Counted from the first letter of the stretch, positions 38,703-54,722 are shown. The stretch is 64,000 nucleotides of DNA from Candidatus Omnitrophota bacterium (GCA_020057115.1 JAGVGJ010000010.1:615-64614); one strand, 5' to 3'. Translations and numbers: made by a program. Notes: a model not told the origin generated them from the letters alone.

Positions 38703-39138
38703 ATTTGTCACGAGTTTTCTTTATATCGGATATGCGCCGGTCGCTCCCGGGACATTCGGGAGCATAGGCGGGCTCGCGGTCTATCTTCTCGTAAAAGATA
38801 GCGCGGCCCTTTATGCGATATCATTTATCGCCATATTCGCACTTGGGATGGCATTTTCAGGAGAGGCAGAGAACCTCTTTAAGAGGAAGGACGCCGGGCA
38901 GATAGTTATCGACGAGGCCTGCGGCATGATGTTATCCCTGGCATTTTTACCATGCAAGCTATGGATAATAGTTGCAGGATTTTTACTCTTCAGGTTATTC
39001 GATATAATAAAACCTCCACCCATCAAAAGCCTTGAAAAACTTTCTGGATCTCTGGGCATAATGTTAGACGATATAATTGCAGCATTATATACAAATATCA
39101 TTCTCCAAATAATAGTTAAAATACAAAAAAGCTTGTAG
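38686..39138 (+). CDS. pgpA: phosphatidylglycerophosphatase A
   Basis: YIGYAPVAPGTFGSIGGL N-terminal PgpA signature. Downstream of pgsA. Confidence 0.8.
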   Translation: MQSIIKFVTSFLYIGYAPVAPGTFGSIGGLAVYLLVKDSAALYAISFIAIFALGMAFSGEAENLFKRKDAGQIVIDEACGMMLSLAFLPCKLWIIVAGFLLFRLFDIIKPPPIKSLEKLSGSLGIMLDDIIAALYTNIILQIIVKIQKSL

Positions 39139-39145: not shown

Positions 39146-39174
39146 TTGACATTCCCTGTCAATCATGGTATATT
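39146..39174 (+). promoter_or_regulatory. near-consensus sigma70 promoter with extended -10 (TTGACA - 17 nt - TGgTATATT) upstream of the giant ORF
   Basis: TTGACA at 39146-39151, a 17-nt spacer, TG at 39166-39167 and TATATT at 39169-39174. Lies 70 nt upstream of the ORF start in an AT-rich gap. Confidence 0.45.
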
Positions 39175-39243
39175 TTAGCTTATATTTACTAGGATATATT
39201 TATATTCTAGTTTTTTTAATCCACAAACGTTAAAAGAACAAAA

Positions 39244-42200
39244 TTGAAGACAAATAGACAAATAAAAAAATTCCCATTATTCATCAGGATCATTGCGACT
39301 ATATTACTGGTCACTTTTTTAGTCCAGGATATAGCGTGGGCGCATCCTGACCCATTTACAAAAGATCCTTCCCGTCATGCAACACTTGCTCCGGAGCCGA
39401 TGTTTGACCATCCGGAAGACAAAGTTACGGCAATTTCAACATTACTCCAATCAAAGATAGAAAGTCACGGCGTCTTTAAGGGTAATGTATCGCTTACTGC
39501 CGTTGAACACATACTGGATCTTGAGGATATCTCCAAATGGTGTGACGAAAACAAGATCGCTATTTCCACGGAGCACACGTTCACGGGCAAACCTACGGAG
39601 ATACGCCTGGTGATGCCGCACGGCCGCGTGCTGCGTTATTATGACCCAAATATAAAGACACACGAGAATAAGGATACGGCTGCTCGCGGTACGGTAGTTC
39701 GCATTAATGCCAATTTATCTAAGCAGGCCATCGAATCAAATGATTTTTACAAGAAAAACTCGCAGGTCGGCACAACCTCAACGCATGTTGATCTTCAGGC
39801 GGCGATACGAAAAGAAAAGTCATCCGCTCACATCTCTCCGTTCCAGAAAGTCCACCCATCTCTGTACGAGCGCATATCCAACTACGGATTGATCGCCGTT
39901 TCGGCAGGGCTTATCCTTGCGTATTGGCTCATAGATACGATAGCGTATATGTATGTATTCTCAGATTCAGACGTCCTCTCCGCCCTTATGCCAAGCGACC
40001 CGTACAGGTATTTTACACGCGCGGTAACCGCATGCATGATCTTTCTTTTTGGTTCGGTTATTCAATTTTTCGTGAACAGGAACAAGAAGAGGTCCATAGC
40101 GCTGTCGGAGAGAAACCATATGTTCTTCCAGGTATTTATGGATATGGGCGTGGCTGCGCACAGGCTGGACATTTCCGGTAATATACTGGATGTAAATACC
40201 AAGTGGTGCGAGTGGATGGGGTATAAGCGCGAAGAGGTCATAGATCGACCCATATTTGATTTTATAGACCCTGAGCATAGGGGCAATGCAAGGGACCGTC
40301 TACTTGGCAGGATAAGGGGATTTACTGAGGTCGAGATACCGCAGAGGACAGGCGACAGGAGATATATAAGGAAGGATGGCACGGCGATACTTTCCGACAC
40401 ATTCCATACGATATTAAAAGACAGGTTCGGCCGTCCGATAGAGATATTGACCCAATTCAGGGACATCACGGAACAGCGCAGTATGGAAAAGGAGCTTGAG
40501 AAGAGCTTGAAGGAGCTGAAGCTTGTGAGCGATACAGATAAGCTGACAGGCGCGTATAGCAGGAACTTCTGGGACAGGCAATTCAATGCCATACTTGAGG
40601 CATTCAGCCGTACGAAGATACCGATATCCGCGATAATGTGCGATCTGGACGATTTTAAAATCGTGAATGACACGCATGGTCATGCAACCGGAGATGAAGT
40701 TTTGAAAGAATACGCCAGGGTCATGCTAGCAGACCGCAGGAAGACAGACTTTGTCATACGAGCCGGCGACAAGGGAGACGAGTTCATAATAATCCTTTTC
40801 AATACAGATGCCAAGGGCGCGTCTATAGCGGCTAATCGTATTCTTGAAAATCTAGCCACGGATCATAATGTGTTAAGTCCTGACGGAAAGCCCATATCCA
40901 TAAGGGCGAGCATGGGGGTCGCCCAGTTCCGCGAAGGCCAGACGAAGGAAGATCTTGTAAAGGCGGCGGATGAGGCCCTTTATATTGCTAAACAGTCCGG
41001 AAAGAGCAAGGTAGTAGTGACGGCGCCTTCTTCCGCGCTTAGCGAAGGGGATGCTTCGCCTGAGAGCAAGATGGCCTTCAAGCGCGTAGTTGAGAATATA
41101 AGGACAAAGCCGCGCAAATATTCCGATATCACCATAAGCGAAAAGTTTATATCCAACATGGCAGAGATAAGAAACAGGCTCCGCAAACTTGGCATCGAGG
41201 ATATCCTTGGAGACTTAAGAGATCTGCGCGTTCTGACGACAGATGCGGTGGTCTTGGGGCACGGAGATTTTTCTGTAGGTTTTTATTCAAAGGCTGAGGA
41301 CGATAAAAATAATCTTATCTCCGTGCTCGGTGAAGACGGGTTCAATAAACTCTTCCCAAGGCCTACGCTCGTCCTGCCCAGGGAGATGTTCGATGAATAC
41401 GACGAGCTTATACAGCAGGATTACATACTCCACAGGATAATATGCCATTCCAAGGGGCATCATACTTCCATGTTCATACAGCAGGCGGTCTATCCCGAGA
41501 ATTACAATTATGGGGCGTATGAAGAGGAGGCCGGCAAAAAATATATGCCTGGCTGTAAGGGCGACCCCTCCAAGCCGTTTAAAGGGCGGACCGGAGAGGC
41601 TATACAAAATATCATAAACGCCATCACAAAAGACCCTATCACCACGGTAATTATGCATGACCTGAAGAACAAGATACAGGGAGGATATGTCCTCGACCTG
41701 GTATTGAATAAATACAAAAAAGATGGTTCGGCGTTATCCGAGGACCTGCTAATGCTGAAGAAATACAGAGATATGATGGGATCTATGGGCAAGACGACGC
41801 TATCATTCTATGCAAATGGCGCCAATGAGACCGAGGCCATCACGGCGCTCAGCGATATGCTCCCAGAGCTTAAGAAGATGACGACTGCCATCAAGTTAAA
41901 GCTTCGATACGGGGCATTCGACTATGACATGGAAGATAAAGAAAAAATAGCGATAGTCATAAAGAACAGCGAAGAAGGGGTTGTCCCCGGCATCAATACA
42001 GCCATCAATATGCTCGGCCGCTCTCCGGAAGAGATCGACGTAGGGAGATTCATAGAAGATATAATTTCCAGGGCAAAATCGATCTTTATAATACCGGAAA
42101 ACACGAGAGTGGATCTGTCCATACCAAGCGAAGTAAGGCGTCTCAGCGGTATCCTTACATACAAGCTTATACTAAAGCTGACGCTTGAAGAGCTTTTAAA

Positions 42201-45200
42201 GAATGCCTCAGTGGACGGTCAAGCCAACAGGATAAAGGTCTCGGTCTCTGCAACAAGCGAGGGAGAGCTTAAGGTCATGGTGAGAGATTACGGCAAGGGC
42301 ATGTCCGAGGAGAGCTTAAAACGGCTCTTCATGCCCGGTAATGCCGCAGTCGAAGATAAGCGTTACGGCTCGGGTTACGGCCTGGCTGTCCTCAAAGAGG
42401 CCATAGATTCCGTTGGGGGGACCATAATTTACGACAACAAGGTCACCGATGGGCCCTCTTTTACATTCACGCTTCCTTTGGATGCCCCGCTGGACAAACT
42501 TAAGCGGCGTGCGCTGAAAGAGCCGCTCATGGTCGCCATGTGCGGGCGCCGCGGGTCAGGCAGGAGCACGGTCGGCCGCATGATCGCAGCCACTTTCGGT
42601 TTGCGCTATGTCAACTCCGGGTTCATATTAAGGGCGGTGCTGTATAAGCTTATTGAGGCGAAGAAGAGAGGCTCCCCGGTTGATCTGGGTGATCCTAAAG
42701 CTGTCGGCGCATTCGCGCAGGATTTCTTTGAAAAGAAGAGGATAGACTATTCAAAAGAGCCTGTCGGGATAGATGGCGTGGATAGCGCCAGTATCCTTGT
42801 GGATGGCTTAAGCCTGCGCGACAAGATAAAGATGCTTATATCGAATAAAGAATTCACAGACGGGCAGTCGAACGAGGAGTGGATGCACCGAGTGGCCGGC
42901 TATAAGACCGTCGACGAAGCCCTTGAAAATTTTATAAGGACGCTTGCCGTAGAGACAAAGGCATACGGCAAGTATAACGGCATAATAAGGATGGCTTCGG
43001 ACCCTGTCAAGAACGAGGATATTATCAATATAATGCTCGACGCCCCTACCTATATAAGGGCCAAGAGGTCCAATACCCCCATAGAAGAGATAGAGAAGCT
43101 TGATAGCGCTACCGGCAGAAAGAGCATGACCGGCAGGTATGCCAGGGTGGACATGATGATAGATACTGCGCACCTTACTGTGCGGCAGGCAGCCATACAG
43201 GCCATACGCTACATAGACGCAAGGGTGCTGTCGAAGGAGGCTGCCGATGGATTTATAAGCCAGGGCGACGCGGCATTTACAAGGATGGCTGAAAATATCG
43301 CATCCGGCAAGGTCGTGGATGCGACGCACGACCCGAGAATAGTGCTTGATATAGAGCGCCTGAAGAACCGCTTGGGTTTGCGTTCGATCGACGATCTCAT
43401 GGGAGCAGGATCGGCAGTGCGCATACTCGTGACCAATGATGTCGTGATAAACGAAAAAGATTTTGCGCTGGGGCTCTATTCCGAATCGCCTGCCGTCAAG
43501 GCGCGGCTTATCCAGGTAATGGGAGAGGAAAAATTTAAACTGGCTTTTCCCAGACCTACCCTGGTATTGACGACCGAGGTGCTTCTTAATAAAGATGAGA
43601 ATATAAGGCAGGAATATATCTATCATGAGGCGATATGCCATGCGAAAGGGCATTATGAGGCCATCCTCGCCCAACAGAAGGTATTCCCGAAAAATTATAC
43701 GGGCGACTGCGAGGAGGGAGCAAACGGCCTTAAGTATGTGCGGGGTTTTGCCGGAGTGAAGGATAAGCCGTTCAAAGGCCGGTTAGGGAGCGCTCTTACA
43801 GCCACGATCAAGATGGCTACCGATCCTATAATAAGAGAGGTGCTGCATGATCTTAACAGTAAGTTCAGTACCGCGGGCGGCTTTGCTTTATACTCCGTAT
43901 TAAAGCGGTATTCGGAGGAAGAGATCGAAGCAGACAAAAGGCTCAAATTGCTTAAAGAATATTGTGCCCTGACGCTGGAGCTCAGGAACGCGTGTATCGG
44001 TTATCTTAGCGGGGAAGCGACCATGTCGGATGTCATGGATATATTTAATGAGCACCTGAAGAGGTTCACGTCATTGACCAGCAGCATTACCGAAAGATTT
44101 AATAACAACGAATATAACGATACCGAGAGGTCCAAGAACGGCATGAAAGTGCTGGTCGAGTATAGCGGCGTATCCATAAACCTCATGAACAGGGCCATGA
44201 ACTGGATAGGCAGGTCTATGGACTCTGTGGATGTAGAAGGCTATCTTGCAAATATCATAGGATCATACAGGGCATCGTTAAAAGAGAGCGCCACGCACGG
44301 AAATAAGTATGTAGAGATAAATGACGCCAAGATATCTCCCGAAGCAAGGCGCCTGAAAGATATCTTCACCTATAAAGAAGTCTTGCGCATGACCATAGAG
44401 GAGCTCGTAAAGAATGCTTTAAAATACAGCGGTACGGATAGTATCGATATAGAGGCATCTCTCACCAAGGACGGCGATCTTGAGTTCAAGGTCATAGACC
44501 ATGGTAAAGGCATCCCTGCGGATACGCTGAAAAAATTATTCACCCCGGGTTTCACGGAAGCTAAAGATTCCAGGATAGGAACAGGCTACGGCCTCGTGTC
44601 TCTCAAAGATGCCATAGGATCGGTAGGGGGCTCGATAAATGTAGAGAGCAAGGTCGGCGAGGGGACCACCTTCATATTTACTCTGCCGGCTAACGGAGAG
44701 ATAGGCGCCCTTAACAGGCCCAAGCTCTATGACCCGATCATAGTAGCCGTGAGCGGCTTGAGAGGGTCGGGTAGGACGGTGGTGTCGCGCTGGATCGCTT
44801 CAAGGCTGGGCTTGAGATATATAAATCCGCGGTTCATGATGAGGGCCATGGTAGCGACGCTTCTCGAAGCCAGAAAGAATGGCCGCGCCATCGACCTGAA
44901 AGACGGGGATGCCGTAGCCGCATTCGCCGAAGAGTTCTTCGGCAAAAGGAGGCTCGACTATTCTGTTGAACCTGTAAAGCTGGACGGCGTCGATACTTCT
45001 GTTCCGGATGAGAAGGACGGTCTCTCGCTGCGCGACAAGATAAAGACAGAGATAGACGACGGCATTACCGATGGAGAACCGAATACCACCATACTTGACA
45101 ATATAGCGCACTATAAAGGGGTCCAGGCAGCGCTTGAGAAGTTCATAAAATCGATCGCAAGCGAAGTAAGGGCATCCGGCAAATATAACGGCGTCATCCG

Positions 45201-48200
45201 GCCCGGGACGGAACCCGTAAAAGATAATGAAGTCATAAATATAATGCTGGACGCTTCGTCCTATATAAGGGCCTCCAGGGCCAATAGGGGCATGGATTGG
45301 ATAGCGTCAAAGGACGAACTCACTGACAGGAAAAATATGGCCGACAAGCATCCGTATATTGACATCATAGATACTTCATACAGCACGGTCGAGGAGACAG
45401 GAGCGCGCGCGCTGGGTTATATAATGGGACATATCCCTATCACAGACGGTATGGTGAGAAAAGGCGACAAGGCGTTCCGCAGGATGGTAGGCAATGTCAT
45501 TGCCGGGAATTTCGCGGAGACAGGGCTCATGGTAGCGCCTGACCTCGAGAATGTCGCGAAGATAACAGGGGCCTCATGCATGGAAGAGCTGATAGGAAGC
45601 GATAAGCCGCTCCGCGTCCTTGTCACCAATGCCGTTGTCTTGAACCAGTCCGACTTTTCTTTCGGGTTCTATTCGCATGCTCCGCCCATAATGGCAAAGA
45701 TAATCTCTTTAGTGGGCGAGGATACCTTTAATAGCACATTCCCGGAGCCGACACTTATCCTATCGGCCGAGATACTCGCCAATCCCAGTCCTCAGATCCG
45801 CCAAGAACACATCCTTCACGAGATATTCTGCCATACTAAAGGCCATTCTCCGGCTGTCTTCGAAGAGCAGAGGCTCTTCCCCGGAAATTATAGTGCCGGT
45901 ACGTTCGAAGAGCGCGGCAGTAAAAAATATATAGCAGGCTACGCCTGGAATGAGGCGATGCCTTTTGACGGCGCGTTCGGGGATGCCCTACGCCAGGTGA
46001 TCGACAAGAAGCTTGCCACGACCACGACCGGAGAATTTGCCCGGCCCAAGGGGAAGGAACATACGAAGACCAGCGCCGCCTTTATGACGGCCGATCTGAT
46101 CGCGCAGGCCGAGAAACTTAAAACGACGAGCATGCAGGAGCAGGCATGTGCTCTTATATTGAAGGCCTTGAGCATCGTCGCGGAATCAGACCAGCCTGTG
46201 CCGTACGAAAACATAGCAAATATCAGGGCTTTTATCTGGGACGAAAGATCCAGCGGGCACGTGCCGGTGAATTTCGATGTCCTGTTGCCGGTCATCGATG
46301 AATATATGAATGACTGCAACCTGACGAAATTTCGCATAAAACTGAGCGCTTTGCGCAAGCACATAGAGTCGACATATACCAATATCTTGGCGATGTATAT
46401 CTATAAACAGCTGTCTCATCTATTTTTCAATTCGCTCCCGACCATCACGAGGTTTACCATATTGATATCTTCCAGGAAATACCCGAACGATCCGTCGCTT
46501 AAAGAGATGATAGAGCTCTCAAGCGAGATGGATCGTTCCATGCGTAACCTCGGCGATGAATCGAACAGGTTAAGGAGCGTCGATTCTCTTATGAATTTTC
46601 TTACGGTATCCGATGAATCACTTTCAAGACAAAGGGCGCTCCTAGATGCGTTCAGAGCCGAGCATCCGGAGCTGCTGCGTCTCGACAGCCGCCTCAGGGG
46701 CAACATAGAAGCTATAAACGCTGAGCTCGAGAAGCTCGCGAGAGCGCGGAGCTTGCTGGCGCTTACGCTCGGTAACAAGCCTTCGCTCGAAGAGATAGCG
46801 GAGAGGGTCGATCTTGTAGTCGCCAAGATGGAGACCGGCGTTAAGACGCCGCGCATCGCATGGGTGGGCGGTCTGGTGCCATATTCCAATACTCTCTCCA
46901 CGGTGAAGGAAGGCGAGCCGGTCAAGGTAAGCATGCGTGTATATATACCGGGCTTTACTCCTCAGGAGATAGACTCAAAAACAGGTATCAAGAAATTTGC
47001 CGAAGGCTTCATAAGGGCCGAGATATGGACGAATGCCATATCTGATCCGGAGGCCAGTTCGGTGGAGGCCTTCAAACCGATAGATATGCGTTTTGACGGC
47101 GTAGGAGGGCGGGAAGGGCATGATTACATATTTACAGGCTTTATCCCTGCAAAATATGCCAGCCAGATAGACAGTAATGGCAGGCCGAAAGAATTCCGTT
47201 TTACGGCCCGAGCCGCTATAAAGAATGAGCTCGGAGGTATAGAAGGGGAATGGGCATATTCCGATAATCCGTATAAGACGAATGTCAACTGGCATGGCGA
47301 CGGAAGGATCGTCGTTCTGTCCAGGGATCCGGAAGAGGACCGCGGCAATCTGGTTGGGAGGGTCTTCAGCGATACGAACGGCAAGGATCAGGTGACTCAT
47401 AAGATATCCGGAAGGATCGAGAAGGGCTTCCTCAACAACGACTACCTCGTCCTTTACGGCGAGGATGGAAAGGTCTTATACGCTAAGGATGGCAAAGAGG
47501 CGCGTGTTAAACTTGAAAGTCCGGCCGTTAAGACAGATCTTGGCTATATTGTATACATGCTTGAGCCAAATGACCATATTCACGGTTTCGCCAGCCGCGA
47601 TAAAGTATTTATGGCAGATTTCATGTTCTATGACAGGGTCCTTTCGTATCATGAGATGAAAGAGGCATACTATAGCGTCCATCCGGATGAGGTTCCTGAA
47701 GGCATAGAACCGCACACTTATTTAAGAGGTTGCGGCAAAGGCATTAGGAACACGGCCGCTTATGCGGTACGTTACGAAAACCTTGATAAAAATTTTACCG
47801 CCGGTCAGCTTAAAACATGGATGAAAAATTCTCTGGCGCCTGAGGATAGGGGCACAGATTCCGAGATGCGGCTCATCGAACATAACGCTTCCAAGGGCAA
47901 GAAGGGCATGGAGCTTCTGTATGGTGAGCAGGACAGGGTATTCGGCCCGAAAGCCAACATGAGGGCCACGGAAAAGATATCAGGGAAGATAAAGAACAGA
48001 AATGATTATAGCCTAAGCAGGGACAAGGTCGTCCTTGTGGTAGAGTTGATGAAATTAAGGCCCGAGGCATTCCCTAACAGCATCGATGCAACCGTCAAGA
48101 TGTTGGGCGAAGGTTTTGATGTATTCAAGAAATATGATTTCCAGGGGCATACGCCTGTTGATGCGGCGCATTATCATTCGGACTACAAGAAGTGGCATGG

Positions 48201-51200
48201 AGCCTTGCTAAAGCTTATAGAATCCGATCCGTCCGTCCCGGCGCATTTTGATAGCATCTCAATGTCCTCCTTGCTTGAAGCCTTGCGCGATCAATACGGT
48301 TATATCAATGCCAAACTCAATTGGGCATGGGCTATTGAGGGCATGTGGAAAGATACGCTTGACGGTATGGAAAAGTATCCCAGAGAGAGCCAGATGGCGA
48401 GGTTCAAGGGCTTGGGCATATTTAAGCGGCACGATGATTTCATGAAGGATTATGCGGGTTCATATTATATAGAGAATGACGATGCTGTTAATAAGGCTAT
48501 GAAAGCGGTGGAAGAGACGCTAGGTTTTATAAATTCACGGGTGCCGTCGATATTTGTTAAGGACGAAAAGCCTGATGGGTCTGCTCCGGTAGCCGCCATA
48601 AAGAAGAATGCTCCACTGGGAGAACGTGCTATCAATTTTATGAAGAGCGGCAGGGCCAGCGAGATCGCCCAGTTCGTAGCGCTCGCTTTCATAATCTCTA
48701 TCGCATTATCCTGGGTTCTTCCGGCTAATTGGCTCACATTGTCTATAGCTATCATAGTTCCTATTACGCTCTTCTTCTTGTTGCCATGGACATGGAAGAC
48801 ATTGCTTGTGAATGTCGCGATAAGCGTCGTACTCTGGTATTGGCTGCCCTTGCCATGGTTCGGGCTCTCTATGGCCATTCTTACGATCGCAAACGTCGCT
48901 AAACACAACATAAAATTAAAGCCCCATCTTAAGCCTGAGGCTGTCCCTGCGGAAAGATCGGTTTTAGAGGAGAAGAAAGCCGAAAAAATATTATCCGATA
49001 TAACCATAGATAGAGAAATATTGGCCCGCATCCTGAAAGCGATAGAAGTTTCCAAAGAAGGGACCGATAAGGCCGATGCCAATGATGCGTTAAAGAAGCT
49101 CGACGATGCCGATATCATAACGCAGCTATTCGATTTCGGTTCAGGGACAAAAGGGTATGAAAAACCCGTTAAAGAAACCAAGGAGAAGCTGCGGCTCGGC
49201 GTAAGAAGGGCGTTCGATGATATCAAGGGCGGTCTCAACATAGAGTACAAGGATATGATAGAGCGCCTCAAGAACTGGAAGAATGAGAATGATGAAGCTT
49301 TAGCCGGAGCTCTCCAGGACCTGTCCCAGGAAGTCATGGATTTTATTATAAATTCGAATCATGCGGCAGACAATAAAGTCGACAGGCTTGCCGTAAGAGA
49401 GCTTATAGCCGAAGAGTGCGGGATAGATGCCGCGAGGTCAGAAACTATAAGGCTAAGGATGGCGCTGGATGTGCAGAAGGATGACGTAGCTTCAAATGAG
49501 ATGATAGGATCCGCATCAGCGAATGACCATTTCTTCCTGGCCGCTCTCCAGCTCAAATTTGGGAATTACATCAAGGCAGAGGAGAGCTTCGGACGCGCAG
49601 TAGACCTTGACCCGACCAATGCCGATTACAGGCTTGCGCTCGGGCTCGTTGAACATATATTTAGAAAATGGATGGCTGCGCGGACAGCTTATAATGCTGC
49701 TTCGAACTTCTATGATATCGAGGCCGGTGTATCGAAAGCCGCAAAGGCCAAGAAGGAACTTGCGGAATTCCTGAGGGAGAAAGCGCGCGCCGAAGCGCCT
49801 CTCATTATGGAGAAGAAAACCAACGGCAACTTGATCGGGAAACTATTCATAGACAAAGCCGCTACCGTTCAGATCAAAGAGGGCGTTATAGCCAAAGAAG
49901 AGATGGGCATCCTTAAGTTCTTCGCCCCCAATGGAGATATCCTTTATACCAAGAGCGGCGTTCCGGCGGCAGTGAAACTGACCGGCCAGATAATAAAGAC
50001 AAAGTCAGGCCACCAAATAAAGATCGTAGAGGACAATGAACATATACGCGGGTTCGCAGATAAGGATAATGCTTATCTTGCAGACTCCTTCGCAAAGAAT
50101 CCCATCGCCAAATACCATGAATTACAAGAGTCACATTACGCCGCCCACCCTGAAGAACTTCCCAAAGGCGTCAATTCCCATACCTATATAAGAGGATGCG
50201 GCAATGATGCCAGAGAAGCTTTAAGGACATCAAGAAAGAAAGATCTCCAGGATATCACCGCAGACGACCTCATCAAATACTTGAAGAAGAGGCTGCCGAA
50301 AGAAAGGCATAATGAGAATGAGTTCAACCTCATCAGATATAACGGCGAGCAAGGTAGAAAAGGGCTTGACCTTATATATGGCCTGCAGGATAGGGAATTC
50401 GGAGTAGAGGCAAATGAGCTATTCAGCGATGCGCTTATTATATTAGAGAAGCCTGAGCCTGCCGCCCAAGCTGCGCCTAAGACACAGCTAAGGACTGCTG
50501 ACGAAGTATTGTTCCGCGACTATTTTGAGGACCTGTTCGAGAAAAATATAGAAATGTTCATGCTCCTGTCGGTAAGGATGATGGGTAGCGATGCCGAAAA
50601 GAAGAGCGTTTTAAAGCGCCGGAATGCGCTCGTGCAGGAGCTTCTCGCGCTGACCGATAAATACAGGTCGCAGGATTTCGCAAAAGAGGAATACAGGAAA
50701 GTAGTCACATTTGTAAATGAAAAGATATTAAGGACTGTCGAGTTGGTAGACGGTGACAATGAACCGGCTGCTGCCTGGTGCTTGTTCGGCGCCATAAATG
50801 TGATAAGCGATACGCGCCTTGAGATGCAGGCCAAATGGCTCTCGGGAATAAAAGAACGCCGCGCCAGGATCTGGCGAAACGGCGGCATACTCACATATCC
50901 GAGAGGCGGCTATCGCATATTGGAAGGCTCGAAGCGCACTGTTATCGACCGCACGGAAGCCACGTTCAGCTCCATGTGGGAGGTTATGCGCTCGCTGTTC
51001 CATCAGGTGGACGGAGAGCTTGAAGAGAAGCGGAAAGTGTCCGGCCTGATATATGAGATAGACGGTTTCATGCTGGAGCTTTTCGACAAGAACTATGAGC
51101 TTAATGACGATGAGCGCGCCGCTATGAGCAAAAAGATCGGCCTCCTGGCAGCTTCCATGGCAAAGGAGAAAGGCGAGCTGAAGTATGAAGATAAGCGTAT

Positions 51201-54138
51201 AGCCAAACTTCTTTTGAATGCATCAGGCATGATCACGCGGCTAGGCGATCGTCACCTGAAGAGCGTCAAGGGCTTCCTTGAAATGGCGATGAGCCATCTC
51301 AGGATCAGGGAAGCGGATGCGATATCTATAGCCACTCATTGCAATAATTCCGGTCTCAACTGGGTATGGGTAGAGTCTTTAAAACGGGATTCCAGGATCA
51401 GGAACTTGGCCATTTCAGCCCTGAAGAGCATAGAAAGAAAAGACCGCAGGTCCGCGCTAGGCGCTATAAAGGGTATCACAAGATTAAATGAGATAAAGAA
51501 TGAGCCGGAATATAAGCCCATTTATAATATCCTCTGGCCTGTAGTAAAAGCCATAGAGGAAAATAAAAAGCCTCTCGAAAGCGCTATAGCCCCGCTCAAC
51601 CTCGTGTTGGAAAAATATAATAATTCGCGCCTTCTGCACAATATGCTTAGAGAATACAGGGATAAGCTTGTCGAAAAAGAGATGGCGTCGCTCGAACCTA
51701 TTGACAGGGATGCGTTCCTGAAAGATATATTTGACATGTCTGCAAAACAGAGCGACTTCCCCAAAACACCTAATCCGGTCCAGGCCCGCGCCAGATGGTG
51801 GGCAAAGCTACACCAGGCGGTGAATATACCGCTTATGATAGACGATCCTGTCAAACGCGGAGAGCGCATCCCTAATCCGGTATTTGAGGCGGCTTCGGAC
51901 TATGCGTATATCCTGGAATTCGGGAAATTGGATGAGCTGGTGAAGATGCCATTCATGCAGGCCGCTAAGCTCGGTGTGACAAGGCCGTATCTGGAGAATA
52001 TACTGAAGCGCCGGCCTTATAGCCATTTGATCCGTACGGATATGCCGAACCTTGTAGCGGCGCTATCCAAAGATTATGGCCTTGATCCTGACCAGGCAAG
52101 ACTTCTTGATGGATGTATCAGGATAGAAGAGTTTAGCGGCGCCACGCCTGCGGTTACGGCCGGGCCTCAGGTTCCTTCGATAGTTTCGCCTTTAAAGGTG
52201 CTTGATGGTATGCGGATAACAGATGAAAAGAGAGAGTCCTTCAGGCTGCGCATAGGGCGGTCGCTGAATAATAATAAATACTCGGACACCATATTCATCA
52301 CAAGAGAATCGGATGGCGAGTCGGTAGGCATGATAGAGACCATAGTGGCTGAGGATAGCAAAACCGGCTCGTGGTCGATAGAGCTTGGCCTTGCCAAGAT
52401 AAATCAAGACGTAAAAGGAACGAACTATAGGAATAGAGGCATATTCCTTAGAGTTATGAACCTCTTGGGCAAGGTCATACCCGAAGGGTCTGAGATGAGC
52501 ATAACCTCTGTCGAAGAGACCAGGACATTAAAGACCCTTGCCGGAGGAAAGAGCTGGTATCAGACCATGATGGGCAAGACATTATACAGGAGCGGCTGGA
52601 AGCTGCAGGAACTATTCATATTCGACAGGGGCAGCTCCAGTACTTATGTCTCTTTCGACAGGCTGGAGAAATGGAAAAGCGATTTTCCTGTAGATAAGGG
52701 CGGTTTTCAAAGCGCGCTCGCTCAGGCGATAAAGGATATCGACAAGACCGATGCGATAGATGATGCTACCGTAGGCGCGGTGTTATCTAAGATAGATAGG
52801 AGCGCAGTGGCTGAGGGCAAGGCCCGTATTGTGCAGCAAGCCGATAAAGGCATTCCTTCCGACAAACAACTTGTATGGATAAACATCCATGGTTTCGTTG
52901 ACCAGGCCAAAGGGCCTTTAGAGAAGAGGATACGGGAATCGATCGCAAAACAAGGTCTTATAAAGAATATACATGATGTCAGCTTGGGAGTGCTTCCCGA
53001 TGAAGTGCGTTCGCACGTGAAGAGCGTATTGGAAGACGAGGCCAAGCCTGTAAGCAATATAGTGCTATCGGGACATTTCTTTGCTACGATCTCGGAATAC
53101 CCCGGATGTATCGAGAGCGCGATACGGGGCGTCTGTGATGCGCTTGGGACCAGCGGCTATAGGATCATCCTGCCGCTCGACCTGATAGATAATAGCGATG
53201 AGACGGTCACGCCCGCCGATCTGGTATTTCTTTTGGGATTCACCCAGTTAGATAAAGAGAATAGCCTCGTATATATAGATGATGCTCCTGTGGCCAAATG
53301 GAGCGAGGCCAAGGCGGATAAAGGCGCTCCTGTCGAGGTCAGGTTATATACCACAAGTGAAAAGATGAAGGCGTATCTTGAAAAGAACGATGTCTCTGCG
53401 GGATCTTCGCGTGCGCCGGAGAGCAAAACATTGCCGGTGCCGAAAGAATCTCCCGAAATATTGTTCGCCAGATTTATGTCGAAGGCGGATATGATAAAAT
53501 ATTCCGCAGGCCAGGCGCTCGAAGGGTTTAGGCCGGGAGAATTCATAAAAGAGAAGGGCCTGATACTTTACGCCGACAGCATCCTTGAACATGGCGCTGT
53601 TGCAGAACTTGAAGATGCCTTGAAGAATACAGGGATATTTAATGAGATGAACATAGTGGTATATGGAAAGAAGCCCGGCATGGCCTGGCTCCTTGAAAAG
53701 ATAATAAGAGGGGCGAATAGCACAGTCAATGTAATAACCGTAAGCGAGGCAGATCTTATAGAAAAGTCCGGCACCAAAGAGATATACATAGATGAGACAA
53801 AGGAGCTTGATTCTATAATCAAATATGCCGGAGCCAAGGGGATAAATAACGGGAACCTCCTCGGCGTCATAAAGGGCTCTACGGCAGCCGCAAGCATAGG
53901 GAAGATAAGAGAGCTCTTAAGCGAGCGCAAGGTCCCGGTCGTCTCATTCGAATCCGCTGATGGCGTATACTCATTTGCAGCGGCCATCGGCATATTAGCA
54001 AAGTTAAAGAATAACATCGACCCGAAGATGAACAACTACTTCGCGGTACTTCCTCCGATAAAGAAGCTTTCGATAGAGTTGGACAGGACCTACCGGGAAT
54101 ACAGGGAAGCGCTCAAGAAGCTCCTCTCAAGCGCCTAA
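39244..54138 (+). CDS. giant multidomain membrane-associated signalling protein (4,964 aa). Domains: N-terminal TM, PAS, GGDEF-like, 2x [novel HExxCHxKGH domain - HATPase_c - cytidylate-kinase-like] supermodules plus a third novel-domain copy, 2x a second novel domain, an internal 3-TM cluster, TPR-like region.
   Basis: Uninterrupted 14,895-nt reading frame (apparent TTG start). A hydrophobic N-terminal anchor and two to three TM helices lie at 39880-40075. PAS spans about 40110-40500. The GGDEF-type domain spans about 40540-41010, with RAGDKGDEF at 40759-40785. Large internal repeats with about 2.2 kb periodicity lie at 41050-46000. HATPase_c N/G1/G2 boxes (ELLKNA...DYGKGM...GSGYGL and ELVKNA...DHGKGI...GTGYGL) lie at about 42150-42480 and 44350-44690. 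Cmk-like domains (CGRRGSGRST...GLRYVNSGFILRAV and SGLRGSGRTV...GLRYINPRFMMRAM) lie at about 42524-43120 and 44735-45300. Three TM helices lie at 48655-48900. Confidence 0.85.
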   Translation: MKTNRQIKKFPLFIRIIATILLVTFLVQDIAWAHPDPFTKDPSRHATLAPEPMFDHPEDKVTAISTLLQSKIESHGVFKGNVSLTAVEHILDLEDISKWCDENKIAISTEHTFTGKPTEIRLVMPHGRVLRYYDPNIKTHENKDTAARGTVVRINANLSKQAIESNDFYKKNSQVGTTSTHVDLQAAIRKEKSSAHISPFQKVHPSLYERISNYGLIAVSAGLILAYWLIDTIAYMYVFSDSDVLSALMPSDPYRYFTRAVTACMIFLFGSVIQFFVNRNKKRSIALSERNHMFFQVFMDMGVAAHRLDISGNILDVNTKWCEWMGYKREEVIDRPIFDFIDPEHRGNARDRLLGRIRGFTEVEIPQRTGDRRYIRKDGTAILSDTFHTILKDRFGRPIEILTQFRDITEQRSMEKELEKSLKELKLVSDTDKLTGAYSRNFWDRQFNAILEAFSRTKIPISAIMCDLDDFKIVNDTHGHATGDEVLKEYARVMLADRRKTDFVIRAGDKGDEFIIILFNTDAKGASIAANRILENLATDHNVLSPDGKPISIRASMGVAQFREGQTKEDLVKAADEALYIAKQSGKSKVVVTAPSSALSEGDASPESKMAFKRVVENIRTKPRKYSDITISEKFISNMAEIRNRLRKLGIEDILGDLRDLRVLTTDAVVLGHGDFSVGFYSKAEDDKNNLISVLGEDGFNKLFPRPTLVLPREMFDEYDELIQQDYILHRIICHSKGHHTSMFIQQAVYPENYNYGAYEEEAGKKYMPGCKGDPSKPFKGRTGEAIQNIINAITKDPITTVIMHDLKNKIQGGYVLDLVLNKYKKDGSALSEDLLMLKKYRDMMGSMGKTTLSFYANGANETEAITALSDMLPELKKMTTAIKLKLRYGAFDYDMEDKEKIAIVIKNSEEGVVPGINTAINMLGRSPEEIDVGRFIEDIISRAKSIFIIPENTRVDLSIPSEVRRLSGILTYKLILKLTLEELLKNASVDGQANRIKVSVSATSEGELKVMVRDYGKGMSEESLKRLFMPGNAAVEDKRYGSGYGLAVLKEAIDSVGGTIIYDNKVTDGPSFTFTLPLDAPLDKLKRRALKEPLMVAMCGRRGSGRSTVGRMIAATFGLRYVNSGFILRAVLYKLIEAKKRGSPVDLGDPKAVGAFAQDFFEKKRIDYSKEPVGIDGVDSASILVDGLSLRDKIKMLISNKEFTDGQSNEEWMHRVAGYKTVDEALENFIRTLAVETKAYGKYNGIIRMASDPVKNEDIINIMLDAPTYIRAKRSNTPIEEIEKLDSATGRKSMTGRYARVDMMIDTAHLTVRQAAIQAIRYIDARVLSKEAADGFISQGDAAFTRMAENIASGKVVDATHDPRIVLDIERLKNRLGLRSIDDLMGAGSAVRILVTNDVVINEKDFALGLYSESPAVKARLIQVMGEEKFKLAFPRPTLVLTTEVLLNKDENIRQEYIYHEAICHAKGHYEAILAQQKVFPKNYTGDCEEGANGLKYVRGFAGVKDKPFKGRLGSALTATIKMATDPIIREVLHDLNSKFSTAGGFALYSVLKRYSEEEIEADKRLKLLKEYCALTLELRNACIGYLSGEATMSDVMDIFNEHLKRFTSLTSSITERFNNNEYNDTERSKNGMKVLVEYSGVSINLMNRAMNWIGRSMDSVDVEGYLANIIGSYRASLKESATHGNKYVEINDAKISPEARRLKDIFTYKEVLRMTIEELVKNALKYSGTDSIDIEASLTKDGDLEFKVIDHGKGIPADTLKKLFTPGFTEAKDSRIGTGYGLVSLKDAIGSVGGSINVESKVGEGTTFIFTLPANGEIGALNRPKLYDPIIVAVSGLRGSGRTVVSRWIASRLGLRYINPRFMMRAMVATLLEARKNGRAIDLKDGDAVAAFAEEFFGKRRLDYSVEPVKLDGVDTSVPDEKDGLSLRDKIKTEIDDGITDGEPNTTILDNIAHYKGVQAALEKFIKSIASEVRASGKYNGVIRPGTEPVKDNEVINIMLDASSYIRASRANRGMDWIASKDELTDRKNMADKHPYIDIIDTSYSTVEETGARALGYIMGHIPITDGMVRKGDKAFRRMVGNVIAGNFAETGLMVAPDLENVAKITGASCMEELIGSDKPLRVLVTNAVVLNQSDFSFGFYSHAPPIMAKIISLVGEDTFNSTFPEPTLILSAEILANPSPQIRQEHILHEIFCHTKGHSPAVFEEQRLFPGNYSAGTFEERGSKKYIAGYAWNEAMPFDGAFGDALRQVIDKKLATTTTGEFARPKGKEHTKTSAAFMTADLIAQAEKLKTTSMQEQACALILKALSIVAESDQPVPYENIANIRAFIWDERSSGHVPVNFDVLLPVIDEYMNDCNLTKFRIKLSALRKHIESTYTNILAMYIYKQLSHLFFNSLPTITRFTILISSRKYPNDPSLKEMIELSSEMDRSMRNLGDESNRLRSVDSLMNFLTVSDESLSRQRALLDAFRAEHPELLRLDSRLRGNIEAINAELEKLARARSLLALTLGNKPSLEEIAERVDLVVAKMETGVKTPRIAWVGGLVPYSNTLSTVKEGEPVKVSMRVYIPGFTPQEIDSKTGIKKFAEGFIRAEIWTNAISDPEASSVEAFKPIDMRFDGVGGREGHDYIFTGFIPAKYASQIDSNGRPKEFRFTARAAIKNELGGIEGEWAYSDNPYKTNVNWHGDGRIVVLSRDPEEDRGNLVGRVFSDTNGKDQVTHKISGRIEKGFLNNDYLVLYGEDGKVLYAKDGKEARVKLESPAVKTDLGYIVYMLEPNDHIHGFASRDKVFMADFMFYDRVLSYHEMKEAYYSVHPDEVPEGIEPHTYLRGCGKGIRNTAAYAVRYENLDKNFTAGQLKTWMKNSLAPEDRGTDSEMRLIEHNASKGKKGMELLYGEQDRVFGPKANMRATEKISGKIKNRNDYSLSRDKVVLVVELMKLRPEAFPNSIDATVKMLGEGFDVFKKYDFQGHTPVDAAHYHSDYKKWHGALLKLIESDPSVPAHFDSISMSSLLEALRDQYGYINAKLNWAWAIEGMWKDTLDGMEKYPRESQMARFKGLGIFKRHDDFMKDYAGSYYIENDDAVNKAMKAVEETLGFINSRVPSIFVKDEKPDGSAPVAAIKKNAPLGERAINFMKSGRASEIAQFVALAFIISIALSWVLPANWLTLSIAIIVPITLFFLLPWTWKTLLVNVAISVVLWYWLPLPWFGLSMAILTIANVAKHNIKLKPHLKPEAVPAERSVLEEKKAEKILSDITIDREILARILKAIEVSKEGTDKADANDALKKLDDADIITQLFDFGSGTKGYEKPVKETKEKLRLGVRRAFDDIKGGLNIEYKDMIERLKNWKNENDEALAGALQDLSQEVMDFIINSNHAADNKVDRLAVRELIAEECGIDAARSETIRLRMALDVQKDDVASNEMIGSASANDHFFLAALQLKFGNYIKAEESFGRAVDLDPTNADYRLALGLVEHIFRKWMAARTAYNAASNFYDIEAGVSKAAKAKKELAEFLREKARAEAPLIMEKKTNGNLIGKLFIDKAATVQIKEGVIAKEEMGILKFFAPNGDILYTKSGVPAAVKLTGQIIKTKSGHQIKIVEDNEHIRGFADKDNAYLADSFAKNPIAKYHELQESHYAAHPEELPKGVNSHTYIRGCGNDAREALRTSRKKDLQDITADDLIKYLKKRLPKERHNENEFNLIRYNGEQGRKGLDLIYGLQDREFGVEANELFSDALIILEKPEPAAQAAPKTQLRTADEVLFRDYFEDLFEKNIEMFMLLSVRMMGSDAEKKSVLKRRNALVQELLALTDKYRSQDFAKEEYRKVVTFVNEKILRTVELVDGDNEPAAAWCLFGAINVISDTRLEMQAKWLSGIKERRARIWRNGGILTYPRGGYRILEGSKRTVIDRTEATFSSMWEVMRSLFHQVDGELEEKRKVSGLIYEIDGFMLELFDKNYELNDDERAAMSKKIGLLAASMAKEKGELKYEDKRIAKLLLNASGMITRLGDRHLKSVKGFLEMAMSHLRIREADAISIATHCNNSGLNWVWVESLKRDSRIRNLAISALKSIERKDRRSALGAIKGITRLNEIKNEPEYKPIYNILWPVVKAIEENKKPLESAIAPLNLVLEKYNNSRLLHNMLREYRDKLVEKEMASLEPIDRDAFLKDIFDMSAKQSDFPKTPNPVQARARWWAKLHQAVNIPLMIDDPVKRGERIPNPVFEAASDYAYILEFGKLDELVKMPFMQAAKLGVTRPYLENILKRRPYSHLIRTDMPNLVAALSKDYGLDPDQARLLDGCIRIEEFSGATPAVTAGPQVPSIVSPLKVLDGMRITDEKRESFRLRIGRSLNNNKYSDTIFITRESDGESVGMIETIVAEDSKTGSWSIELGLAKINQDVKGTNYRNRGIFLRVMNLLGKVIPEGSEMSITSVEETRTLKTLAGGKSWYQTMMGKTLYRSGWKLQELFIFDRGSSSTYVSFDRLEKWKSDFPVDKGGFQSALAQAIKDIDKTDAIDDATVGAVLSKIDRSAVAEGKARIVQQADKGIPSDKQLVWINIHGFVDQAKGPLEKRIRESIAKQGLIKNIHDVSLGVLPDEVRSHVKSVLEDEAKPVSNIVLSGHFFATISEYPGCIESAIRGVCDALGTSGYRIILPLDLIDNSDETVTPADLVFLLGFTQLDKENSLVYIDDAPVAKWSEAKADKGAPVEVRLYTTSEKMKAYLEKNDVSAGSSRAPESKTLPVPKESPEILFARFMSKADMIKYSAGQALEGFRPGEFIKEKGLILYADSILEHGAVAELEDALKNTGIFNEMNIVVYGKKPGMAWLLEKIIRGANSTVNVITVSEADLIEKSGTKEIYIDETKELDSIIKYAGAKGINNGNLLGVIKGSTAAASIGKIRELLSERKVPVVSFESADGVYSFAAAIGILAKLKNNIDPKMNNYFAVLPPIKKLSIELDRTYREYREALKKLLSSA

Positions 54139-54687: not shown

Positions 54688-54693
54688 AATTTA

Positions 54694-54722
54694 GGGTCCA
54701 GAGGCCAGGGTCAAGGGTCCAG
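54694..54722 (+). repeat. GGGTCCAGAGGCCAGGGTCAAGGGTCCAG intergenic repeat, copy 2
   Basis: 28/29 identity to the copy at 14518-14546. Sits in the 52-bp gap between thpR and cinA. Confidence 0.8.

Follow-up and report, generated by a model that had tools for sequence, protein, structure and literature searches.

A predicted 4,964-residue mosaic signalling protein with two undescribed domain families encoded at a conserved chromosomal site of Candidatus Omnitrophota

The window analysed here is a stretch of 64,000 nucleotides from a Candidatus Omnitrophota bacterium (GCA_020057115.1 JAGVGJ010000010.1:615-64614), whose ORF listing contains a single ORF of 4,964 aa with a TTG start at 39244..54138 (+). 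The gene order around it is rimO-pgsA-pgpA, long gene, thpR-cinA-recA, with FtsK, RodZ, RimO, PgsA and PgpA encoded before the gene and ThpR, CinA and RecA after it, and the stop codon of the long gene overlaps the convergent thpR by 12 nt. The only stop in the translation is the terminal one; the other two forward frames hold 374 and 300 stops over the same interval, and the probability of finding none in 4,964 codons, given the base composition of the ORF, is ~1e-118. Scored by codon-usage log-odds derived from the window's remaining genes, every one of the 33 tiles (450 nt each) is positive in frame 0, and the other two frames are negative. The DNA of the ORF contains neither repeats of more than 28 nt nor tandem repeats that could have misled an assembler, and the identical 4,964-aa product is recorded at both NCBI and JGI/IMG, on a 98,931-bp contig. 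Stop statistics and a coding signal throughout thus bear out the original prediction of one uninterrupted frame far beyond chance. Its guess of an Omnitrophota origin was also right, as all named best matches of the PNPase encoded in the window are from Candidatus Omnitrophota (71-78% identity); the syntenic loci of relatives come from Omnitrophota MAGs as well. The interval 39244-54138 is, as far as these sequence data go, a genuine single gene of an Omnitrophota chromosome, predicted to be translated into a single chain.

Upstream of the gene, a sigma-70-type promoter (TTGACA, a 17-nt spacer and TG-n-TATATT) is found at 39146..39174 (+), which agrees in 11 of 12 positions and has the extended -10 form, as had been proposed. 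It is followed by a short 5' UTR at 39176..39243 (+), which holds a hairpin (CTAGGATAT..ATATTCTAG; fold -12.4 kcal/mol, z -2.66), then U7 and, directly before the start codon, a box, GTTAAAAGAACAAAA, that is kept in the relatives examined. At the position of this 5' UTR, the relatives carry a much longer structured leader RNA. No Rfam family matched either this leader or the 5' UTR of the window. Scanning for a 17-nt stretch of the RNA element yielded more than 120 matches, and because only 13 of these hold the full element, most of the 17-nt matches are attributed to chance. Of the 13 metagenome loci with the full element, 11 have pgsA-pgpA upstream, the upstream sequence of the remaining two being too short to judge.

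The protein begins with a family-specific leader peptide (residues 1-33; 39244..39342, +), delimited by motif conservation and alignment, which consists of a basic N-terminus and a hydrophobic helix followed by DIAWAHPD. Of 86 family proteins, 19 have the strict form of this motif within their first 70 aa, against none of 20 controls, and elsewhere it occurs at only 2 internal sites in 218,621 aa; a leader of like kind stands at the head of all 13 further long ORFs from metagenome loci. The TTG codon is backed as the predicted start by this leader and by the alignment to relatives, in which it coincides with the ATG of the gene in locus L005. Met53 was considered as the true start and dropped, since it would delete a leader that is conserved in relatives. 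After the leader follows an N-domain cassette (residues 34-205; 39343..39858, +), recognised by its identity to proteins of relatives: 36-44% to the same position in L008, L113, L021 and P0003, and 28% to the N-terminus of P0027. This cassette has no match in Pfam or NCBIfam.

Every domain named in the original prediction was recovered by Pfam or by self-alignment. The first is a unit composed of two predicted transmembrane (TM) helices (residues 214-279; 39883..40080, +; KD scan), a PAS domain (residues 303-412; 40150..40479, +; Pfam PAS_9 at 44.4 bits, E 2.1e-11, cut-off 27) and a GGDEF domain (residues 430-590; 40531..41013, +; Pfam match at 430-588, E 9.5e-35). The latter scores 120.2 bits with PF00990 (cut-off 23.8) and 133 bits with TIGR00254. 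In the alignment to PleD and 3ign, its signature, G-DK-GDEF at 508-514, shows a 2-residue insertion between the two glycines, the RKTD at 499-502 aligns with the RxxD I-site of PleD, and the metal-binding DLDDF and ND residues are also aligned. The unit resembles PAS-GGDEF sensor diguanylate cyclases of the PleD, DosC and DgcZ type in the order of PAS and GGDEF, the two-TM N-terminal anchor, the RxxD I-site, the metal-binding Asp and the C-terminal Lys/Arg. It differs from them in the insertion within the signature, in the ~4,400 further residues fused to it, and in being a movable cassette, found internally in P0030, P0040, P0059 and P0002.

Behind this unit lie two supermodules (599-1338 and 1338-2077, 35-47% identical), each built of a zincin-like domain X, a histidine-kinase core and a P-loop NMP-kinase-like domain; a third copy of X follows at 2077-2259 in the self-alignment. 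The kinase cores comprise residues 802-1085 (41647..42498, +; Pfam HATPase_c, motifs read from the sequence) and 1533-1820 (43840..44703, +; HATPase_c at 1714-1816; Pfam, PDB search), and both copies match PF02518 (E 2e-39). Their N, G1 and G2 motifs (KNA, DxGxG and GxGxGL) are located at 986/1015/1042 in copy 1 and at 1723/1752/1779 in copy 2. Core 1 also holds an H-box-like HDLKNK (His805) and a long helical insert, and core 2 an HDLNSK (His1535), these histidines being placed ~180 residues before the N-box instead of the usual ~110. No HisKA profile matched the protein in Pfam at E <= 1. Against the PDB, the CA domain of core 2 aligns with sensor kinases as best matches; in HK853-type chains, the part of the DHp that follows the phospho-acceptor His is aligned too, the His helix itself remaining outside the alignment. 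The cores share with HisKA/HATPase_c kinases such as ZraS, AtoS, WalK and HK853 a CA domain with N, G1 and G2 and an upstream H-box-like HDL(K/N)x. Unlike those kinases, they have no HisKA match, hold ~70 extra residues between the candidate His and the CA domain, are each fused to a P-loop NMP-kinase-like domain, and occur in a protein with neither a cis receiver nor an adjacent response regulator (no Response_reg domain was detected in the protein or in the neighbours scanned).

The P-loop domains (residues 1095-1335, 42526..43248, +, Pfam Cytidylate_kin; residues 1830-2070, 44731..45453, +, self-alignment and Pfam Cytidylate_kin and Cytidylate_kin2) are 47% identical. Cytidylate_kin is matched twice (E 1.7e-10), in both cases only through positions 1-44 of the 211 of the model, that is, its N-terminal part, and the cytidylate kinases of the PDB align (E 2e-3) only over the P-loop and first helix. 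The Walker A sequences, GSGRST (1104-1109) and GSGRTV (1841-1846), have Arg in place of Lys, and the homologous module of P0019 has GSGAR. Neither the GxxGxGK(S/T) of cytidylate kinases nor a full-length profile match is therefore present. PADLOC returned only two marginal P-loop matches. The fusion of kinase core and P-loop domain recurs in P0019, also from Omnitrophota, and the whole X-kinase-P-loop supermodule in P0031 and in the upstream gene of locus L001.

The predicted protein carries two undescribed domain families, here called X and Y. X is present at residues 608-801 (41065..41646, +; X-profile E 1.6e-52), 1341-1532 (43264..43839, +; HEAICHAKGH) and 2074-2262 (45463..46029, +; HEIFCHTKGH; X-profile E 4.2e-53). 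According to its structure model, it folds as a zincin-like metallopeptidase, with a beta-sheet followed by an active-site helix, in which HExxC-x3-GH replaces HExxH. The His, Cys and final His of this motif are 83-84% conserved in a 69-copy profile alignment, and the Glu 50-80%; alignment A1 shows no variation at the final His and a conservation of at least 90% at the first His and at the Cys. Copy 1 reads HRIICHSKGH, an HRxxC form in which the catalytic Glu is replaced by Arg. X had no match among the curated peptidase families of Pfam and NCBIfam at E <= 5, nor, as a 50-sequence profile, among PDB sequences at E <= 10. In BlaR1/MecR1 (M56) and the M48/minigluzincin peptidases (selecase, abylysin, HtpX and Ste24), the counterparts of its active-site-helix His-Glu, Gly turn and further His can be recognised, and X resembles BlaR1 in lying within a membrane-tethered signalling protein. 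X differs from them in the Cys that replaces the second His of HExxH, in having no sequence match to peptidase families (Pfam, NCBIfam, PDB), in not being placed between TM helices, and in one of its three copies being devoid of the Glu; its activity is putative. As an H-box follows X in only ~5 of 65 copies, X is not a dedicated kinase input.

Y occurs as copy 1 (residues 2696-2911; 47329..47976, +; Y-profile E 7.5e-67) and copy 2 (residues 3523-3730; 49810..50433, +), with 37% identity between 2701-2905 and 3528-3724 in the self-alignment, and its conserved motifs are HExxE, H-x3-RGxG-x3-R and G-x-QD. Its structure model is confident and has no solved structural neighbour; the Y profile found nothing significant among PDB sequences. 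Homology between X and Y was considered and dropped (hhalign probability 1.6%); the short stretch aligned by hhalign pairs the two HE motifs. The idea that Y might exist as a small secreted protein was also abandoned, since P0043 is a long gene cut at a contig end, right after pgpA.

The remaining regions are connected to these domains as follows. X copy 3 is succeeded by a linker region, L1 (residues 2263-2695; 46030..47328, +), which is colinear with P0031 and the upstream gene of L001; with its end (...GDGRIVVLSRDPEE), colinearity to the latter ceases. From there on, the protein corresponds to a second gene, as in L001, with a first Y, a four-helix membrane module, a TPR region, a second Y and a conserved C-terminal part. 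The membrane module, Z (residues 2912-3220; 47977..48903, +; 15-sequence alignment), is made up of a pre-TM region and four TM helices (3141-3220), and is homologous to positions ~380-700 of stand-alone proteins of 1.3-2.5 kaa. The helical region behind it (residues 3225-3522; 48916..49809, +) is TPR-like at 3428-3486, with a best Pfam TPR score of 21.5 bits, below the cut-off of 26.8, and with E 1e-4 to 1e-3 for a three-sequence profile against TPR chains of the PDB. The C-terminal regions C1-C4 (residues 3731-4964 plus stop; 50434..54138, +) are conserved in orthologues adjoining thpR: they are 56% identical to P0026 (L003) as far as the C-terminus and 38% identical to P0027 (L001), where the alignment reaches only residue 4516, and C4 matches the C-termini of P0039 and P0035. 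Neither L1 nor C1-C4 matched a curated family in Pfam or NCBIfam, and searches of the unassigned regions against PDB sequences gave nothing significant. For ~60% of the protein, no function can be assigned. A GNAT domain near residue 4,400, suggested by a YRNRG motif, was dropped because no profile supports it.

Comparison of the syntenic loci shows that the site between pgpA and thpR holds a fast-evolving, module-shuffled long gene in every relative examined, and that the occupant is different each time. The encoded length is 2,968 aa (L005), 4,816 aa (L007) or 9,640 aa (L008); L001 has a pair of 3,840 and 2,036 aa separated by a 48-nt gap, and L003 and L130 have truncated copies. Identity to relatives is 54-82% in the flanking genes, against 38-56% where stretches of the long gene itself are homologous. 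Homologues are rare (84 matches among 1.84 billion representatives), and the order of X, Y and Z varies among them. A search with the whole protein found the protein itself and partial matches to PAS and kinase proteins only; exact look-ups of it and of a neighbouring protein gave no locus in a contig index, a scan of a genome collection returned only the already known relative, and a first metagenome scan gave no matches. The cassettes belong to a rare family, apparently centred on Omnitrophota.

Since L001 carries the region as two genes, the ORF of the window equals those two genes joined through Y copy 1. That several genes had been joined by an assembly error was named with the original prediction as a finding that would refute it, and in part this applies: the two adjacent genes of this relative, the closest full locus with both flanks, are what such an artefact of assembly or sequencing would have merged into one frame, and the downstream gene of the pair bears its own leader. 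However, the junction is clean. Where L001 has a stop, the 48-nt gap and a new leader, the window has a complete Y domain (E 7.5e-67) in frame, with ~2 residues between it and the conserved end of L1, and neither a leader-like sequence nor a trace of a stop or frameshift was found there in any frame. The 286-aa tail, stop, gap, leader and N-domain of L001 have left no remnant in any frame, the codon signal is uniform across the junction, repeats that could seed a chimera are absent, and the same site is occupied in other genomes by single genes of 2,968-9,640 aa. An artefact is thus very improbable, and the one-gene state, judged by this complete in-frame junction domain, is most probably an evolutionary fusion of modules rather than an assembly error.

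Seven TM segments in three clusters are predicted, at 7-35, 215-236, 259-279 and 3137-3220 (KD scan). The last cluster had been described as three helices near residue 3,140, a count corrected by the alignment of 15 homologues, which contains four conserved hydrophobic segments, that is, two hairpins. Both its flanks are net positive in the window protein, and the cluster at 214-279 has flanks of +1 and +4 and a loop of -2. The clusters at 214-279 and 3141-3220 look like hairpins that return the chain to the same side. It holds for the helices that the protein crosses the membrane at least twice, as was first claimed, but this need not place large domains on both sides. The leader, in turn, with its basic N-terminus and AWA before HP, resembles a Sec signal or signal anchor, which, if real, would put the following chain outside the cytoplasm and contradict the positive-inside reading of the hairpins. 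The same ambiguity of topology is described for the giant proteins of Omnitrophota (West-Roberts 2023, bioRxiv 10.1101/2023.11.21.568195).

The likeliest role for the protein is that of a membrane-tethered, mostly cytoplasmic c-di-GMP and histidine-kinase signalling scaffold, possibly self-processing, and we regard as probable the overall explanation of a module-shuffled long gene at a conserved site that encodes such a membrane-tethered cytoplasmic signalling protein. The leader would anchor the nascent chain at the inner membrane, and both TM clusters would form hairpins, so that the nucleotide-using domains remain in the cytoplasm. PAS would gate the synthesis of c-di-GMP by GGDEF, and the two kinase cores may autophosphorylate and, because the protein has no receiver domain, hand the phosphate to partners encoded elsewhere. 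The Lys-to-Arg P-loop domains may bind nucleotide rather than turn it over. Where modules meet, X domains could serve as proteases, regulated or self-processing, in the manner of BlaR1; alternatively, they could provide Zn/thiol sensor inputs.

Unlikely, in our estimate, is an exported surface protein, in which the leader would be a Sec signal or anchor, most of the chain would lie outside with the TM hairpins dipping back in, and the whole would contribute to the cell-surface apparatus that has been suggested for Omnitrophota with a predatory or episymbiotic life. The basic N-terminus, hydrophobic core and small-x-small site (AWA before HP) of the leader would suit it, as would the position of Y directly after the leader in L130 and the published topology predictions, which assign most domains of the giants to the outside or predict a signal peptide plus TM for 39% of the giants. 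Nevertheless, the GTP or ATP on which GGDEF, histidine-kinase CA and P-loop domains depend is absent outside the cell; each of the two TM clusters is bordered by net-positive flanks; housekeeping genes, and not genes for secretion, pili or glycoside hydrolases, surround the long gene; and SecA_DEAD, dockerin and CAZyme domains are absent according to Pfam. Somewhat less credible is a self-processing polyprotein, cut at module boundaries by X, and perhaps by Y through its HExxE...H, to release separate enzymes. For the mature products it would then not matter whether the locus has one gene, as in the window, or two, as in L001. This reading is favoured by the recurrence of the zincin-fold X with HExxC-x3-GH at the supermodule boundaries 608, 1341 and 2074, by relatives that encode the modules as one gene or two, and by a published proposal of autoproteolysis for the Omnitrophota giants, which draws on different peptidase domains; it is opposed by the absence of a conserved linker motif, by the lack of known cleavage sites, and by X copy 1 having no catalytic Glu. 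More doubtful again is a wider version, in which the pgpA-thpR site would be a dedicated hypervariable locus for a new class of self-processing signalling polyproteins, with targeting by the leader, cutting by X (perhaps Y) and, in most relatives, gating of expression by an undescribed riboswitch-like 5' RNA with a terminator hairpin; this RNA would have been lost from the window genome, which kept only a strong promoter.

Long mosaic genes are already known in Omnitrophota, and the gene of the window is a further example; a study by Seymour et al. from 2023 (PMC10066038) is said to deal with such very long or giant mosaic proteins too. The core of the original prediction is supported: a single ORF encodes a mosaic signalling protein, associated with the membrane and of the long-protein type known from Omnitrophota. 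The word giant does not suit it, since 4,964 aa is far below the thresholds given in the literature, >30,000 aa (West-Roberts et al. 2023, bioRxiv 10.1101/2023.11.21.568195) or at least 10,000 aa (Nielsen & Lui 2026, bioRxiv 10.64898/2026.06.07.730766). With the giants, among whose commonest domains are HATPase_c, GGDEF and TPR, the protein shares the phylum, the mosaic of enzyme and signalling parts, TM helices along the chain, ancient internal domain repeats with no nucleotide tandems, mostly unannotated sequence and near uniqueness at the level of the whole protein. In contrast to the giants, it is devoid of SecA_DEAD, C39, S8, dockerin and carbohydrate-active domains, and its neighbours are housekeeping genes instead of T2SS, T4P, pilZ and glycoside-hydrolase genes. 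The combination of numerous TM helices and a divergent SecA_DEAD that marks the giants was not found, as no SecA-family Pfam match was obtained at E <= 1. The pgpA-thpR site, the leader motif and the X and Y families are not mentioned in the portions of the giant-protein literature considered.

Proteins of great length and mosaic build are a signature of Omnitrophota. The present example leaves the known picture of the phylum unchanged and makes questions about the synthesis, placement and use of such proteins testable: at ~5 kaa it is small enough for study, and its conserved site makes length and module order comparable across genomes. The natural pair of a one-gene and a two-gene state bears on whether these chains act whole or in pieces, and the family-specific leader on their targeting. 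X (HExxC, zincin-like) and Y are compact families, confidently modelled and accessible to expression and assay, and the conserved structured 5' leader of the relatives may control expression.

The long gene occupies one ORF on the forward strand (39244..54138; 4,964 codons), for which the ORF listing of the window gives TTG as the first possible start. Its translation holds zero internal stops, the remaining two forward frames have 374 and 300 across the same stretch, and the chance of 4,964 stop-free codons, given the ORF's own base composition, is about 1e-118. Codon-usage log-odds, trained on the window's other genes, are positive for frame 0 in 33/33 tiles of 450 nt and negative for both other frames, and the score shows no dip at domain borders. 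The uninterrupted frame claimed in the original prediction is therefore confirmed, as is the promoter (TTGACA, 17 nt, TG-n-TATATT at 39146-39174; 11/12 matches). A repeat search found no direct or inverted DNA repeats longer than 28 nt and no tandem repeats in or around the ORF, which indicates that the internal repeats of the protein are old and that no sequence feature invites repeat-driven misassembly. An identical product of 4,964 aa, encoded on a contig of 98,931 bp, has a record at NCBI and another at JGI/IMG. Its final codons and stop share 12 nt (54127-54138) with the 3' end of thpR, which is convergent, and no intrinsic terminator was found behind either of the two.

The only in-frame starts near the N-terminus are TTG (codon 1), Met53, and three more at codons 123-129. 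The TTG is directly preceded by the box GTTAAAAGAACAAAA, which relatives also conserve ahead of the start, and in one of them (L005) an ATG stands at a spacing from it identical to that of the window's TTG. The N-terminus of the protein, MKTNRQIKKFPLFIRIIATILLVTFLVQDIAWAHPDP...TLAP, matches a family leader common to the orthologous genes of four related loci (L005, L007, L008, and L130) and to 13/13 further long ORFs in metagenome loci. The strict leader motif occurs in 19/86 family proteins and in 0/20 unrelated long PAS-kinase proteins, with only two internal sites in 218,621 residues, and no other ORF in the window carries it at a plausible position. The position of the box, the ATG spacing in L005, and the leader shared with relatives together make the TTG start well supported.

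In the relatives examined (L005, L007, L008, and the metagenome loci), the box reads GTTAA(A/G)AGAA(C/T)A just 5' of the long-gene start; the window's copy (39229-39243) contains no classical Shine-Dalgarno sequence, and by fold prediction the U-run of the upstream hairpin can pair with it. The leader peptide (39244-39400, residues 1-52 in the window) consists of a basic stretch, often with (K/R)(K/R)FP, a hydrophobic helix, (Q/Y)D(I/V)xWA(H/Y/N)P(D/E), and (T/K)LAP about 10-20 residues on. It is found at the N-termini of P0003, P0027, P0030, P0037, P0039, P0059, P0063, P0101, and other homologous proteins, as well as in the 13 metagenome loci, and may be a signal dedicated to sorting or tethering.

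Relatives also share a conserved 5' leader RNA of about 145-180 nt between promoter and long gene (L005:18661-18828, L007:18833-19008, L008:18482-18639, and 11 metagenome loci in our alignment), for which no Rfam family was found. Besides the invariant blocks TTCTAGGA-CC, AACTCGGGG, and GGGTCTT, it has a middle hairpin that varies and another (GACCAGATWGCCTAGAA..GGCRATCTGGT) that, with the U-run after it, resembles a terminator. A TTCTAGG on the 5' side is complementary to CCTAGAA within the latter hairpin, a pairing that suggests an antiterminator or a pseudoknot. The window gene lacks the full element and keeps only a remnant at 39176-39243.

Among the parts proposed in the original prediction, PAS (residues 303-412), GGDEF (430-588), two HATPase_c copies, and two partial Cytidylate_kin matches were recovered by Pfam and NCBIfam. 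Self-comparison likewise returned the proposed repeats, namely two supermodules of X, histidine kinase core, and P-loop NMP-kinase-like domain (599-1338 and 1338-2077, 35-47% identical), a third copy of the His/Cys-motif domain X, and two copies of a second domain, Y, 37% identical to each other. The TPR-like stretch is weak in Pfam, and a small profile matches it to TPR chains in the PDB. Pfam-matched stretches cover only about 13% of the residues, and no curated family (Pfam, NCBIfam, E <= 5) covers the cassette following the leader (N-domain), X, the linker between the third X copy and the first Y (L1), Y, the region before the transmembrane (TM) cluster, or the C-terminal 1,230 residues.

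The GGDEF domain keeps its metal ligands and the I-site RxxD (RKTD, 499-502), and its signature is G-DK-GDEF, with two residues inserted relative to PleD. N, G1, and G2 boxes are present in each of the two kinase cores, as is a motif resembling an H-box, HDL(K/N)x (His805 and His1535); neither core matches any HisKA profile, and PDB alignments start past the His helix. Both cytidylate-kinase-like domains match real cytidylate kinases only in the P-loop and first helix, and the Walker A Lys is replaced by Arg in each (GSGRST and GSGRTV); the homologous module of P0019 has GSGAR at this position.

X was modelled by AlphaFold2 with a pLDDT of 96.7 from a 50-sequence alignment. The helix that corresponds to the active-site helix of zincins bears the conserved motif E-Y-x-x-H-E-x-x-C-x3-G-H, which reads as an HExxH with Cys for the second His and, after a Gly turn, a His as third ligand. 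The Glu of the motif is Arg in copy 1 and is kept in copies 2 and 3. Our profiles detected 69 copies of X in 46 proteins and 52 copies of Y in 42. Since an H-box follows X in only about five copies, X is a module that stands alone rather than an input specific to kinases. The model of Y (pLDDT 93.4) shows a beta-sheet subdomain and then a helical bundle, and its conserved residues (HExxE, H-x3-R-G-x-G-x3-R, E..LI..N, and G-x-Q-D) look like a putative active or binding site.

The buried TM cluster predicted near residue 3,140 is present as a conserved module, with four hydrophobic segments, not three, and the motifs LPVN..T, W-S/T-W, and LP..PWFGLS. In the window's protein it is net positive on both flanks, and in the two-TM unit at 214-279 an acidic loop lies between positive flanks. 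By the positive-inside rule, these charges would make both units hairpins, with the large domains in the cytoplasm, a placement that suits domains needing GTP and ATP. This conflicts with what the leader could imply: its strongly basic N-terminus and AWA-HP site resemble a Sec signal peptide or anchor, and if it acted as such, everything after it would lie outside. For Omnitrophota giants, the literature describes this same ambiguity of topology (West-Roberts 2023, bioRxiv 10.1101/2023.11.21.568195).

Whether the ORF wrongly joins separate genes can be judged from L001, a related locus with two genes in its place. The upstream one is colinear with residues ~1569-2695 of the long protein and the downstream one (P0027) with 2899-4516; between these parts the upstream gene runs on for a tail of 286 aa to its stop, a gap of 48 nt follows with a ribosome-binding site in it, and the downstream gene then opens with a new leader and N-domain, both similar to the long protein's own N-terminus. 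At this break, the long protein carries a complete Y domain (2696-2911; Y profile E 7.5e-67), beginning about two residues past the conserved end of L1, and no trace of the L001 tail, leader, or N-domain occurs in any frame of the window's junction region. Such a pattern is expected of a fusion or fission at the level of whole domains, and not of a frameshift or a chimeric join. In the best-supported account, two genes that are separate elsewhere are fused in the long gene; either state may be ancestral. The position of the TM helices at residue ~3,140 is explained by the two-gene and stand-alone forms, in which the membrane module lies ~350-700 residues from the N-terminus.

The gene order of the window is pnp, bacA, ftsK, rodZ, rimO, pgsA, pgpA, the long gene, convergent thpR and cinA, two extra genes, recA, and degP. 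Related loci, obtained via PNPase orthologues on long contigs, repeat the upstream string, and the long gene behind it differs in length from one to the next: after pgpA come 4,964 aa in the window, 2,968 in L005, 4,816 in L007, 9,640 in L008, and 3,840 + 2,036 in L001, the last followed by thpR-cinA-recA, with truncated copies 3' of pgpA in L130 and ahead of thpR-cinA in L003. Among 13 further metagenome loci with the full 5' element, pgsA-pgpA lies directly upstream of the leader-bearing ORF in 11, whose ORFs extend past the contig end; the other two have too little upstream sequence. Flanking genes are 54-82% identical to those of the window, versus 38-56% for homologous long-gene parts, and large parts are non-homologous. 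Shared flanks, variable length, and lower identity thus mark it as one allele of a gene that keeps its chromosomal position while evolving fast and shuffling its modules.

In all six relatives examined (L001, L003, L005, L007, L008, and L130), the long gene splits the widespread pgsA-(pgpA)-cinA-recA neighbourhood at one and the same point; it ranges from 2,968 to 9,640 aa and diverges much faster than its flanks (36781-39138 and 54127-55870 in the window). The two genes between cinA and recA (56378-58741 and 58802-60445) are missing from L001; the first product (787 aa; 717 aa by IMG, so that its start is disputed) has no family match, and the second (547 aa) ends in a PEP-CTERM motif (E 3.3e-4). 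Nearly all large ORFs of the window (1-64000) lie on the + strand, cumulative GC skew climbs almost unbroken, as expected on a leading strand, and there is one tRNA (10064-10137).

All organism-named entries among the 120 close PNPase homologues listed are Candidatus Omnitrophota or Omnitrophica (71-78% identity). A protein homology search of a 5.8-billion-cluster collection returned no full-length match to the long protein; for its C-terminal third there are two true homologues: P0026, which is 56% identical and comes from a short contig, and P0027, which is 38% identical and is a protein of 2,036 aa from an Omnitrophota MAG. Residues 2077-3276 have only 84 matches among 1.84 billion representatives in an exhaustive HMMER search, nearly all of them proteins of 1-8 kaa, and these sort by module, of which there are three, each independent of the others: X, Y, and Z (the TM cluster with the region before it). 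Mapped against the long protein, the matches vary widely in module order. P0030, P0040, P0059, and P0002 have the 2TM-PAS-GGDEF unit in their interior, Z lies ~380-700 residues from the N-terminus in stand-alone proteins of 1.3-2.5 kaa, and the X-kinase-P-loop supermodule recurs in P0031 and the upstream gene of L001. The kinase-P-loop part occurs without X in P0019, and so behaves as a movable unit. P0019 (MHB8155328.1, from an Omnitrophota MAG and annotated as a 4-alpha-glucanotransferase) carries the CA domain of a kinase joined to the P-loop NMP-kinase-like domain, whose Walker A is degenerate, at residues 2020-2504 within an otherwise glycan-metabolising architecture.

The published passages on very long mosaic proteins of Omnitrophota describe HATPase_c, GGDEF, TPR, internal TM helices, and ancient domain repeats, and the protein fits this kind. 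In contrast to those proteins as described there, it is far below their length thresholds, contains no peptidase domain (C39 or S8) and no SecA_DEAD, dockerin, or carbohydrate-active one, and has housekeeping neighbours instead of secretion or glycoside-hydrolase genes. The same passages make no mention of the pgpA-thpR site, the leader motif, the X and Y families, or the kinase and P-loop fusion. With corrections, the idea of a mosaic signalling protein of the Omnitrophota long-gene type is upheld. Architecture, synteny, start codon, and the folds assigned are established by this analysis; catalytic competence and topology, as well as any self-processing, are inferred. According to the best-supported account, this is a genuine single gene for a membrane-tethered, mostly cytoplasmic signalling scaffold, module-shuffled at a conserved hypervariable site.
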